Source: Escherichia coli (lineage in GTDB: Bacteria; Pseudomonadota; Gammaproteobacteria; Enterobacterales; Enterobacteriaceae). Taken from it: a stretch of DNA of 64,000 bases. Of the stretch, positions 60,881-64,000 are shown piece by piece. The position numbers and the translations under genes are program-made. The notes below the pieces were generated by a model. It saw only the letters and a program-made list of their open reading frames with translations. It was not told where the DNA came from and did not search any database. Location: the NCBI RefSeq assembly GCF_044324785.1, contig NZ_CP172127.1; one strand, 5' to 3'. Position 1 is the first letter of the stretch, and every line of letters begins with the position of its first letter.

Positions 60881-62575
60881 GTGGCAATGAGTGGTGAAAA
60901 AAAGGCGAAAGGCTGGCGGTTCTATGGTCTTGTAGGTTTGGGCGCAATAGTACTGCTTTCCGCTGGCGTCTGGGCGTTGCAATATGCTGGCAGTGGACCA
61001 GAAAAAACGTTGTTGCCGCTGGTGGTGCACAACAATCTGCAAATCGATCTCAATGAGCCGGACCTCTTTCTCGACAGCGACTCTCTGAGCCAGCTTCCCA
61101 AAGACCTCCTTACCATTCCGTTTCTCCACGATGTTCTGAGTGAAGATTTCGTTTTCTATTATCAGAATCATGCCGATCGTCTGGGCATTGAAGGCAGCAT
61201 TCGCCGCATTGTCTATGAACACGATCTCACGCTGAAAGATAAGCTCTTTTCGTCACTCTTAGATCAGCCCGCGCAGGCGGCGCTATGGCACGATAAACAA
61301 GGCCATCTTTCACATTACATGGTGCTGATCCAGCGCAGTGGTTTAAGCAAACTGCTGGAGCCATTGTTGTTTGCCGCTACCAGCGACAGCCAGTTAAGCA
61401 AAACGGAAATCAGTAGTATTAAGCTAAATAGTGAAACCATACCGGTTTATCAGTTGCGCTATAACGGCAATAACGCCCTGATGTTCGCGACTTATCAGGA
61501 CAAGATGCTGGTGTTTTCCAGTACGGATATGCTGTTTAAAGATGACCAGCAGGATACCGAAGCCACGGCGATCGCAAGTGATTTGTTGAGCGGTAAAAAA
61601 CGCTGGCAAGCCAGCTTTGGCCTGGAAGAGCGTGCTGCCGAAAAAACGCCAGTACGTCAGCGCATCGTGGCCAGCGCCAGGTTGCTGGGTTTTGGCTACC
61701 AGCGGTTAATGCCTTCTTTTGCTGGCGTACGCTTCGAAATGGGTAACGACGGCTGGCACAGTTTTGTGGCGTTAAATGATGAATCCGCCAGCGTAGATAC
61801 CAGTTTCGATTTTACGCCGGTCTGGAACAGTATGCCTGCCGGGGCCAGCTTCTGTGTGGCGGTGCCGTATTCACACGGTATTGCCGAAGAGATGCTTTCG
61901 CACATCAGCCAGGAAAACGACAAGCTGACTGGGGCGTTAGACGGTGCCGCGGGGCTGTGCTGGTATGAAGACTCAAAATTGCAAACCCCGCTGTTTGTCG
62001 GTCAGTTTGATGGCACTGCCGAACAGGCACAACTGCCTGGGAAACTGTTTACGCAAAATATTGGTGCGCACGAAAGCAAAGCGCCAGAAGGTGTTTTGCC
62101 GGTAAGCCAGACTCAGCAGGGCGAAGCGCAAATCTGGCGTCGCGAAGTGAGTTCCCGATACGGCCAGTATCCGAAAGCACAGGCGGCGCAACCCGATCAA
62201 TTAATGTCGGATTATTTTTTCCGCGTGTCGCTGGCGATGCAAAACAAAACGCTGCTTTTCTCCCTCGATGACACGCTGGTTAATAACGCGCTGCAAACAC
62301 TGAATAAAACCCGCCCGGCAATGGTGGATGTAATACCCACTGATGGCATCGTTCCGCTCTATATCAATCCACAAGGCGTGGCGAAACTGCTGCGTAACGA
62401 AACGCTGACCAGTCTGCCGAAGAATCTCGAACCGGTTTTTTATAACGCCGCACAAACTTTATTAATGCCGAAGCTGGACGCTTTATCTCAACAACCTCGT
62501 TATGTCATGAAGCTGGCACAGATGGAACCCGATGCCGCCTGGCAGTGGCTACCCATAACCTGGCAGCCGCTATGA
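60881..62575 (+). CDS. yfaA: DUF2138-family protein YfaA, 564 aa (start may be a few codons downstream)
   Basis: ORF track; N-terminal TM/signal segment; first gene of yfaA-yfaT-yfaS cluster. Confidence 0.8.
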
Positions 62576-63195
62576 GGCACGGGCTGCTGGCGCTGATTTG
62601 CTGGCTGTGTTGTGTTGTTGCCCATAGCGAAATGCTGAATGTCGAACAATCCGGGCTGTTTCGCGCGTGGTTTGTACGCATTGCACAGGAACAACTCCGC
62701 CAGGGGCCAAGCCCACGCTGGTATCAGCAGGATTGTGCGGGCCTGGTGCGATTTGCGGCGAACGAGGCGCTGAAAGTTCATGACAGCAAATGGCTAAAAA
62801 GTAACGGCATAGCAAGTCAGTATTTGCCGCCTGAAATGACGTTAAAACCTGAACAGCGTCAACTGGCGCAAAACTGGAATCAGGGGAACGGGAAAACCGG
62901 CCCCTACGTGACCGCGATTAATTTGATTCAGTACAACAGCCAGTTTATTGGCCAGGACATAAACCAGGCGCTGCCTGGCGATATGATTTTTTTCGATCAG
63001 GGCGATGCCCAGCACTTAATGGTCTGGATGGGGCGTTACGTCATCTACCACACCGGAAGCGCCACGAAAACTGACAACGGAATGCGCGCAGTCAGTCTGC
63101 AACAACTTATGACATGGAAGGACACCCGATGGATACCCAACGATTCCAATCCCAATTTCATTGGCATTTATCGTTTAAATTTTCTGGCGCGATAG
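62545..63195 (+). CDS. yfaT: DUF1175-family protein YfaT, up to 216 aa
   Basis: ORF track; overlaps yfaA 3' end and yfaS 5' end. Confidence 0.78.
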
Positions 63196-64000
63196 CAGCG
63201 TGCTTGTCCCTGTCTCTTGTGGGAACAGGGCTTGCCAATGCTGATGATTCGCTTCCTTCCAGTAACTATGCGCCGCCCGCCGGGGGAACATTCTTTTTGC
63301 TTGCTGACAGCAGTTTTAGCACCAGTGAAGAGGCGAAAGTGCGACTGGAAGCGCCGGGGCGTGATTATCGACGCTATCAGATGGAAGAGTACGGCGGCGT
63401 GGACGTTCGCCTGTATCGTATTCCTGACCCGATGGCATTTTTGCGCCAGCAGAAAAACCTGCATCGCATTGTGGTGCAACCGCAATATTTGGGCGACGGG
63501 CTGAACAATACGCTGACCTGGCTGTGGGATAACTGGTACGGCAAATCTCGCCGCGTGATGCAGCGTACTTTCTCTTCTCAGTCACGGCAGAATGTGACTC
63601 AGGCGTTACCCGAACTACAGCTCGGTAATGCCATTATTAAACCTTCCCGTTATGTACAGAACAACCAGTTTTCACCGCTGAAAAAATATCCACTGGTGGA
63701 ACAGTTCCGTTACCCATTATGGCAGGCTAAACCGGTCGAGCCGCAGCAAGGGGTAAAACTGGAAGGCGCATCCAGCAATTTCATCTCGCCGCAGCCGGGC
63801 AACATCTATATTCCTCTCGGCAAACAAGAGCCGGGACTGTACCTCGTCGAGGCGATGGTCGGTGGATATCGGGCGACGACGGTGGTGTTTGTTTCCGATA
63901 CCGTGGCGCTTAGCAAAGTGTCGGGTAACGAGCTCCTGGTGTGGACCGCGTGTAAAAAACAGGGGGAAGCGAAGCCGGGATCAGAGATCTTGTGGACTGA
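63129..64000 (+). CDS. yfaS: Alpha-2-macroglobulin-family protein YfaS, 5' part (3'-truncated by window edge)
   Basis: Manual translation from the ATG near 63129 ([38 protein letters not shown]...) is open to the window end; absent from the ORF track because no stop lies within the window. Confidence 0.7.

Follow-up and report, generated by a model that had tools for sequence, protein, structure and literature searches.

A conserved ATG inside yfaT as the best-supported start of yfaS in the Mag-type yfa operon of Escherichia coli

The stretch analyzed here, called the window throughout, comprises 64,000 nucleotides (nt) of the Escherichia coli contig NZ_CP172127.1 (RefSeq assembly GCF_044324785.1), and the region of interest at its end (60881 to 64000) is the promoter-proximal part of the yfaA-yfaT-yfaS-yfaQ-yfaP operon. 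The main subject is the start of yfaS, the gene for a bacterial alpha-2-macroglobulin (A2M). Judged from sequence comparison, the best-supported start codon of yfaS is ATG 63129, which lies within yfaT and gives a 67-nt overlap of the two genes. Taken as a whole, the region is probably best explained as a Mag-type operon in which yfaT would begin at ATG 62572 and yfaS at a hairpin-masked ATG 63129. The gene cluster itself is already known and belongs to textbook annotation; for the start-site element in yfaT (magC in Pseudomonas), no earlier description was found.

The start codon of yfaS

Three open reading frames (ORFs) follow gyrA in the window: 60881-62575, 62545-63195, and a frame that is open from 63075 and continues past the window end. 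The yfaS frame contains 290 in-window codons without a stop, in agreement with the first-pass annotation, made from the sequence alone, according to which the 5' end of yfaS is intact. The available annotations of this gene are inconsistent. That of K-12 uses ATG 63129, which is separated from the end of the yfaT stop at 63195 by the 67 nt of the overlap, and that of the Prokaryotic Genome Annotation Pipeline (PGAP) uses GTG 63219 (position 11521 of the locus L001), giving a product of 1504 amino acids and no overlap. Other gene callers place yfaS at 63219 or 120 nt further (1464 amino acids), and only yfaT is listed under 63096-63195 in each of 8 RefSeq rows spread over the ranking. The candidate start codons are given below, with positions in brackets counted from the base that directly follows the yfaT stop and with the energies of the anti-Shine-Dalgarno duplex computed in the window, followed by the elements of the preferred start.

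63114 (-82), + strand: ATG, +0.7 kcal/mol; would give an 82-nt overlap
63129 (-67), + strand: ATG, -5.5 kcal/mol
63192 (-4), + strand: ATA, -1.5 kcal/mol
63204 (+8), + strand: TTG, -1.5 kcal/mol
63219 (+23), + strand: GTG, +0.6 kcal/mol; the PGAP start, within the signal peptide's hydrophobic core
63116-63122, + strand: Shine-Dalgarno (SD) sequence GGAAGGA for yfaS, 6 nt 5' of ATG 63129, read as Trp-Lys-Asp in the yfaT frame
63129-64000 and beyond the window end, + strand: 5' part of yfaS, type II A2M and MagD ortholog (K-12 annotation, conservation)

With initiation at ATG 63129, the predicted signal peptide of YfaS comprises residues 1-38 (63129-63242), having its hydrophobic core at residues 20-35 and its cleavage site between ANA and DD, after which a conserved mature N-terminus follows. 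Only ATG 63114 and ATG 63129 yield a signal peptide, because the other candidates do not precede the hydrophobic core, and of these two only ATG 63129 has an SD sequence. ATG 63114 was rejected as the yfaS start, since it has no SD sequence (mean +1.6 kcal/mol over 81 loci) and a few loci do not keep it.

Conservation of the block around ATG 63129 was followed through a YfaT scan of species-representative genomes, in which 80 loci were kept of 216 relatives detected; the sampled loci belong to Escherichia, Superficieibacter, Enterobacillus, Yersinia, Edaphovirga and, mostly, Pseudomonas. All 77 non-Escherichia loci carry the A of this ATG, and every Escherichia locus keeps the complete ATG. 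The SD sequence of the -67 start has a mean energy of -5.4 kcal/mol (-4 kcal/mol or lower in 96% of 81 loci), and the ATGs at -82 and -4 have none. In the sliding-window analysis of synonymous change, the observed/expected ratio fell to 0.20 at yfaT codons 181-189 versus 0.74-1.6 elsewhere in yfaT; at the same time, the minimum across 606 yfaA windows was 0.48, and in yfaS the first percentile was 0.40, with its 15 lowest windows all located within the overlap. The following dip is the deepest synonymous constraint of the three genes.

63094-63140, + strand: synonymous-constraint element in yfaT, codons about 175-190; about 47 nt that are nearly invariant, base by base, in 77 non-Escherichia loci and hold ATG 63114, the SD sequence and ATG 63129

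Strong conservation is also visible within the species: 96.6% of E. coli genomes are at least 99% identical over the last 100 nt of yfaT, versus 65% for a single mid-gene control. In Pseudomonas, individual codons of the block are fixed despite their low usage in magD of the same genomes, with which the counts were compared.

CGA: 76/76 at the site, magD usage 2.6%
ATA: 73/76 at the site, magD usage 1.1%
ACA: 71/71 at the site, magD usage 2.8%
CAA: 76/76 at the site, magD usage 27%
TAT: 68/76 at the site, magD usage 26%

These data bear directly on the RefSeq/PGAP annotation, according to which yfaS begins at GTG 63219 or later, no overlap exists, and the upstream ATGs are by-products of the YfaT sequence, arising from its Thr-Trp and Arg-Trp codons. 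PGAP and the other gene callers do agree on 63219 or later, and the very conserved YfaT C-terminus partly forces conservation of the yfaS frame; yet a by-product ATG leaves unexplained why the rare codon CGA (2.6% of Arg codons) is fixed in all 76 Pseudomonas loci. Moreover, GTG 63219 has no SD sequence (+0.6 kcal/mol), is not kept even in E. albertii, and stands 8 residues before the ANA/DD cleavage site, which would leave a periplasmic protein without a signal peptide. We consider this annotation very unlikely to be right. Long upstream extensions of ORFs are common by chance, and the 67-nt overlap is regarded as more than chance because its conservation across genera is not explained in this way.

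The first-pass annotation had estimated this overlap at about 65 nt, which fits well with the 67 nt provided by ATG 63129, by the K-12 annotation and by the cross-genus conservation. It had also called the start codons ambiguous, which holds insofar as the K-12 and PGAP starts of yfaS are inconsistent, and which comparison of related loci has largely resolved. The same comparison, standing in for the start mapping that was expected to decide whether the overlaps exist, supports the 67-nt overlap and shrinks the proposed overlap of yfaA and yfaT from 31 nt to 4 nt (see below).

Several other readings of the yfaS 5' end were tried and rejected. A Tat (twin-arginine) signal is not consistent with the position of the RR pair of the Pseudomonas MDTRR sequence: some 20 residues separate this pair from the hydrophobic core, and E. 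coli has QR in its place. A lipoprotein signal was suggested by the lipobox-like sequence IAAC in the predicted YfaS signal peptide; its Cys is located within the hydrophobic core and is replaced by Tyr in Escherichia sp. E1V33. A programmed -1 frameshift from yfaT into yfaS at T_TTA_AAT (63174-63180) would place a signal peptide in the interior of a MagC-MagD fusion, which makes no sense, and the sequence is CTGAAC or CTGTCC in Pseudomonas; T_TTA_AAT is taken as a chance occurrence because it is not conserved beyond the enterobacterial loci. As for an internal promoter in the conserved block, no sigma-70-like site was found there, the arrangement ATGACA-17 nt-GATACC, noticed by eye, having a poor -10 element.

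The start at the yfaT stop and the predicted hairpin

A second potential start of the A2M gene exists in most relatives. In 73 of 77 non-Escherichia loci, an ATG at -4 in the A2M frame overlaps the yfaT/magC stop (ATGA), giving a short canonical signal peptide, e.g., MNRLLAVALLALMPLAAHA with ED following the cleavage site. This ATG is replaced by ATA in all Escherichia, where the junction reads ATAG, and in Superficieibacter, and by CTG in Enterobacillus; five Pseudomonas loci (L017, L026, L031, L046 and L050) also have no ATG at -4.

63192-63195, + strand: ATAG junction of the window; ATA in the yfaS frame, TAG as the yfaT stop

The loci without the -4 ATG retain intact A2M genes of about 4.6 kb, which argues more strongly than any other observation for use of the -67 AUG. 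Several of these loci have no further canonical start ahead of the hydrophobic core. The locus L007 offers only -82 and -67 as canonical starts up to +120, and the hydrophobic core of L017 and L031 starts directly at -1, so that all of the positive residues of the N-region are supplied by the -67 extension. From these sequences we infer that two redundant routes would lead to one mature protein, namely SD-dependent internal initiation and SD-less reinitiation at ATGA, of which Escherichia would keep only the first.

A consensus structure obtained with RNAalifold on 37 sequences places the initiation region of yfaS in a stem together with the end of yfaT.

63116-63184, + strand: predicted RNA hairpin; 5' arm 63116-63140 (SD sequence and AUG 63129), 3' arm 63161-63184

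In this structure, 98.2% of cells are paired and 7 cells carry compensatory changes, a number matched in 0 of 500 shuffles. The hairpin is the minimum-free-energy fold in most species tested, reaching -20 to -30 kcal/mol with z values of -2.6 to -5.7 in Pseudomonas and Enterobacillus, and it is the top consensus-fold window of yfaT, standing lower than 289 yfaS windows. A pair between the A of the AUG and the U in the middle of the Tyr codon TAT in the predicted stem would account for the fixation of this codon (68/76). Note that the slid controls for the hairpin are biased, the structure having been derived from the same alignment, and that the single-sequence fold of 63076-63235 was no more stable than shuffled sequences (z 0.63).

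On this model, ribosomes finishing yfaT would unmask the yfaS start; we advance this tentatively, as a possibility that falls a little short of being the favored one. Classical hairpins that mask a ribosome-binding site and are opened by upstream translation are known from rpmI-rplT of the infC operon and from the coat/replicase pair of MS2. The yfaT/yfaS arrangement resembles such coupling systems in that the downstream SD sequence and AUG are predicted to be paired within the 3' end of the upstream gene. Unlike rpmI-rplT and MS2, the yfaS initiation region lies wholly inside the upstream coding sequence, 67 nt from its end, and is dual-coding, and a second, ATGA reinitiation start coexists with it in most relatives of yfaT/yfaS.

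The constrained block might also be an RNA regulatory element rather than a start, either a CsrA/RsmA site with the GGA motifs ACAUGGAAG and GAUGGAU or a hairpin for mRNA stability or processing, with weak initiation of E. coli yfaS at some non-canonical codon, for instance ATA 63192. The constraint sets in at the fixed CAA (-91), ahead of both ATGs, and is limited to about 47 nt, a conserved hairpin is predicted, and the mag operon of P. aeruginosa belongs to the RsmA regulon, all of which speak for such an element. However, the GGA motifs are located in the predicted stem, not in a loop, and the reported RsmA binding concerns the magA leader, not this site. ATA is a very poor initiator codon, and ATA 63192 has no SD sequence (-1.5 kcal/mol). 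An RNA element also leaves unexplained how L017, L031 and L007 make an exported protein. Therefore, such an element in place of a start appears unlikely; besides, the two ideas are compatible, since regulators of the CsrA type usually act on SD regions.

Several points weigh against ATG 63129 as a used, hairpin-controlled start. The constraint is back to background after about yfaS codon 7, and conservation therefore concerns a block of initiation-region size rather than the extension peptide; on these data, a start codon in use and some other function at the RNA level cannot be told apart completely. The 38-residue signal peptide with its long polar N-region is atypical. In P. aeruginosa PAO1, MagD as annotated and studied carries a signal peptide of 26 residues, in keeping with a start close to the magC stop or at it, and a MagD(1-64)-mCherry fusion was periplasmic in this organism (PMC3735191, PMC5764988), so the internal start is not required there. 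In the accessible papers and supplements, no start-site, N-terminal or expression evidence for the yfa genes was found; of the three genes, the supplement of the INRI-seq start-site study (PMC9825163) lists yfaA only, with an out-of-frame site, and neither yfaT nor yfaS. As to the hairpin, its compensatory changes are restricted to 2 pairs, codon degeneracy restricts the allowed variation, and consensus-fold energies favor conserved sequence; the hairpin of the window itself reaches only -12.5 kcal/mol (z 0.2) and is thus weak in Escherichia.

The yfaA/yfaT junction and the Mag-type operon

The two genes upstream of yfaS are defined as follows.

60874-60878, + strand: SD sequence AAGGA for yfaA, anti-SD duplex -5.4 kcal/mol
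60887-62575, + strand: yfaA, 562 amino acids, DUF2138, MagB counterpart (Pfam, NCBIfam, K-12 and PGAP annotation)
62545-62547, + strand: GTG, first start codon of the yfaT ORF, unsupported; source of the "30 nt" overlap
62572-63195, + strand: yfaT, 207 amino acids, DUF1175/MagC, predicted signal peptide (Pfam, PDB 7BK8, conserved junction)

The start of yfaA is ATG 60887 rather than the in-frame GTG 60881, because the K-12 annotation, PGAP and the NCBIfam equivalog all fit the 562-amino-acid product; the AAGGA sequence is 8 nt from ATG 60887 and only 2 nt from GTG 60881. A mini-ORF, ATG TGG CAA TGA (MWQ*), occupies 60879-60890 in an AUGUG context, and its TGA overlaps ATG 60887. The INRI-seq cell-free study reports an out-of-frame ATG start at -8 of K-12 yfaA, matching this mini-ORF (PMC9825163, supplement file 6).

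ATG 62572 is the yfaT start in both the K-12 and PGAP annotations and overlaps the yfaA stop by 4 nt as ATGA (62572-62575). A start/stop junction of the [AGT]TGA form is present in 79 of 79 loci with a recognizable yfaA homolog (GTGA in 60, ATGA in 11, TTGA in 8), and the product of ATG 62572 opens with a canonical signal peptide and aligns with the MagC crystal construct from residue 21 on. The overlap of about 30 nt that the first-pass annotation had assigned to yfaA and yfaT proved to be an artefact of taking the longest ORF. It corresponds to a yfaT start at GTG 62545, i.e., a 31-nt dual-coding overlap up to the yfaA stop, which we regard as scarcely credible. This GTG is indeed the first start codon of the ORF, and some relatives also carry an in-frame start at -27 of yfaT. 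At the same time, it has no SD sequence (-1.5 kcal/mol) and is not annotated in K-12 or by PGAP, the 4-nt junction is universal among the 79 loci, and the product of ATG 62572 already has a canonical signal peptide. Furthermore, in the scan of 36 thinned sequences the last 30 or so codons of yfaA have synonymous observed/expected ratios of 0.94-1.17, about 1.0 for the codons under the supposed overlap, and therefore show no sign of dual coding. Sequence comparison thus places the yfaA/yfaT overlap at 4 nt. By this measure, yfaA and yfaT form a 4-nt stop/start coupled pair, which yfaT and yfaS in Escherichia (ATAG) do not.

The protein families of the region are those of the Mag system. YfaA matches Pfam DUF2138 (E 5.5e-286), is aligned with NCBIfam PRK11410 across residues 1-562, and has a single N-terminal hydrophobic helix, at residues about 13-31 by hydrophobicity. 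YfaT matches Pfam DUF1175 (PF06672; E 1.8e-58, 198 bits vs the cutoff of 27) and, over residues 21-206, the MagC structure PDB 7BK8 with about 80% identity (E 3.6e-103); the NLPC_P60 model remains under its cutoff on YfaT (20.9 bits, cutoff 23). The 290 in-window residues of YfaS alone gave no Pfam match, and the full-length protein (L001) contains MG2 (5e-25), A2M_BRD (1.6e-17), A2M (8.6e-13) and bMG10 (4.9e-6) domains. The downstream genes encode DUF2300 (YfaQ) and DUF2135 (YfaP) proteins. The gene identities and the tight coupling proposed in the first-pass annotation are borne out, as is its description of YfaS as a bacterial A2M homolog, the MG2, bait-region, A2M and bMG10 domains being present in the full-length protein of loci identical or near-identical to the window. 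Its description of the partner proteins as uncharacterised has to be abandoned, since YfaT shares about 80% identity with MagC, a protein of solved structure, and YfaA is the MagB counterpart.

By its sequence, the E. coli yfa operon can be classed as a five-gene member of the type II A2M group. Type II A2Ms are defined by the absence of the CxEQ thioester (PMC5764988, PMC3735191). The P. aeruginosa MagD protein traps proteases non-covalently after bait cleavage and needs MagB for its periplasmic stability (PMC5764988, PMC3735191), MagB being a membrane-anchored stabiliser of MagD (PMC5764988); PMC10318531, citing Zouhir 2021, describes MagC as an inactive NlpC/P60-like peptidoglycan binder. 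The DUF2138 (MagB), DUF1175 (MagC), DUF2300 (MagE) and DUF2135 (MagA/F) genes occur together in E. coli, and the gene order MagB-C-D-E-F of P. aeruginosa magABCDEF (PA4492-PA4487) is that of YfaA-YfaT-YfaS-YfaQ-YfaP. Like MagD, YfaS has a bait region without CxEQ, and like MagB, YfaA has one N-terminal hydrophobic helix. In the Pseudomonas loci examined, PAO1 not being among them, the 4-nt magB/magC overlap and the -67 block of SD sequence and AUG inside magC are found as in E. coli.

There are also clear differences. E. coli does not have a six-gene operon starting with a MagA (DUF2135) gene; it has five genes, with gyrA upstream in place of a MagA-like gene, and a YfaP-like gene upstream of the yfaA homolog is present in the Pseudomonas loci only, none being found in E. 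coli, Yersinia alsatica or Enterobacillus. Escherichia has ATA at the position of the Pseudomonas ATGA at the magC stop. The Mag biochemistry is known from P. aeruginosa, the functions of the yfa counterparts being assigned by orthology only. Identities to the Pseudomonas loci are 44-51% for YfaA, 69-75% for YfaT in the pairwise comparison and 69-77% across L009-L082, 53-56% for YfaS, 52-54% for YfaQ and about 41% for YfaP; YfaT/MagC is thus far more conserved between Escherichia and Pseudomonas than its operon neighbors, which is striking for a supposedly inactive accessory protein.

The type I proteins ECAM/YfhM and Salmonella Sa-A2M share the MG, bait-region and A2M domain family with YfaS. 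Type I A2Ms are periplasmic protease traps (PMC5764988) with a CLEQ thioester, a lipobox and a pbpC neighbor, whereas in YfaS no C.EQ motif is found, the Cys of the lipobox-like IAAC is not conserved, and the neighbors are yfaT and yfaQ, not pbpC.

Much of yfaS lies beyond the window, and its integrity was followed in the assemblies that are 100% identical to the window (L083 and L085), in which the gene is intact with 1534 codons. The frameshifts or stops that were to refute an intact gene are absent from these assemblies. No C.EQ motif is present in the entire 1534-amino-acid YfaS of L083-L087; the search for the CxEQ thioester recommended by the first-pass annotation was moot, because the absence of this motif defines the type II class, of which YfaS is a member. 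In the near-identical L088 (GCA_028598205.1), the yfaS frame has a stop after 275 codons; a real pseudogene is the less likely reading there, as scattered small indels relative to L085 over 21.7 kb make an assembly error more likely. The first-pass statement that yfaS is disrupted in K-12 was correct, and the disruption can be traced to a single TGG to TGA change at codon 1368. K-12 MG1655 (b2230, b2229, b4500, b2226, b2225) has the same locus, the same neighbors on the gyrA side and the annotated 4-nt and 67-nt overlaps, but its yfaS is a pseudogene, the lineage of the window having Trp at codon 1368 and an intact gene.

Altogether, the following mechanism is proposed by analogy with the Mag system and from sequence. 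YfaS, as the MagD counterpart, would be a periplasmic protease trap of the A2M type with a bait region and no thioester; YfaA would be a single-pass inner-membrane protein that holds and stabilises it, and YfaT presumably an inactive peptidoglycan binder of the NlpC/P60-like kind. Translation of yfaT would initiate at ATG 62572 through ATGA stop/start coupling to yfaA, and that of yfaS at ATG 63129 from its own SD sequence GGAAGGA, yielding the predicted 38-residue signal peptide. The yfaS initiation region is probably masked by the hairpin with the last 30 nt of yfaT, which ribosomes completing yfaT might open, so that the two genes would be coupled. Most Pseudomonas relatives would use in addition the SD-less ATGA start at -4, with the same mature protein expected after cleavage, and Escherichia, in which the -4 start is lost (ATA), would rely on the internal start.

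Locus, lineage and meaning of the start block

In the window, gyrA (58112-60739) is followed directly on its 3' side by three co-directional genes, yfaA, yfaT and the 5' part of yfaS. The short leader region of the yfa operon is bounded upstream by a hairpin behind gyrA.

60759-60776, + strand: terminator-like hairpin after gyrA, stem-loop AAGGGAGCTATCTCCCTT with a T-rich tail behind it

The scan of 60600-63400 gave no sigma-70 consensus promoter, and no Rfam family matched 60600-64000 at E up to 1. Codon 83 of gyrA (58358-58360) is TTG (Leu), with Asp87 unchanged; residue 83 is Ser in wild-type K-12, and Leu is the classic S83L quinolone-resistance substitution. The yfaL-ubiG intergenic region (57106-57240) contains, by eye, sequences like repetitive extragenic palindromes (REP), e.g., GCCGGATGCGGCGTAAACGCCTTATCTGGCCTAC.

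The segment was matched by megablast in 5398 of 5426 complete E. coli genomes, where it is annotated as gyrA, yfaA, yfaT and "alpha-2-macroglobulin family protein". At the same time, the top identity for 60700-64000 among the 5426 complete RefSeq E. coli genomes was only 98.3-98.6%, and the lineage of the window is thinly represented among finished E. coli genomes. The draft assemblies L083 and L085, to which the exact YfaA protein led, match window positions 50887-64000 (13,114 nt) with 100% identity. Exact matches to the segment occur in the draft/metagenome assemblies GCA_018347485.1 and ERZ28576316. In L083-L087, which are identical or near-identical to the window, yfaP adjoins rcsC (positions 19288-21689), whereas in K-12 it is followed by the ato genes; atoB, atoE and atoA adjoin yfaP in K-12 and MEI003, and the lineage of the window apparently has no ato genes there.

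In a wider form, the last 100 nt of yfaT/magC may constitute a conserved dual-coding, hairpin-masked initiation module (SD sequence and AUG at -67) that provides the main start of type II A2Ms across Pseudomonas and Enterobacterales, alongside or instead of ATGA. This generalization is offered with reserve, as conceivable but somewhat more doubtful than not. If it is true, Escherichia relies on the internal route alone, and the start published for P. aeruginosa MagD and the one that RefSeq gives for YfaS (1504 amino acids, no signal peptide, thousands of genomes) are both incomplete; the 21-residue N-terminal extension might then work as a lengthened signal-peptide region in the export of a very large protein.

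As to annotation, RefSeq/PGAP and other callers appear to begin E. coli yfaS at least 90 nt too far downstream, likely a systematic mis-start, and the product annotated from that start is without the export signal required by a periplasmic protease trap. The case is an example of synonymous-site constraint settling a disputed start codon, and the start block allows simple silent-mutation tests in work on type II macroglobulins. For the Mag/Yfa complex, in particular, the buried start and its possible control by a hairpin could explain matched amounts of the complex proteins.

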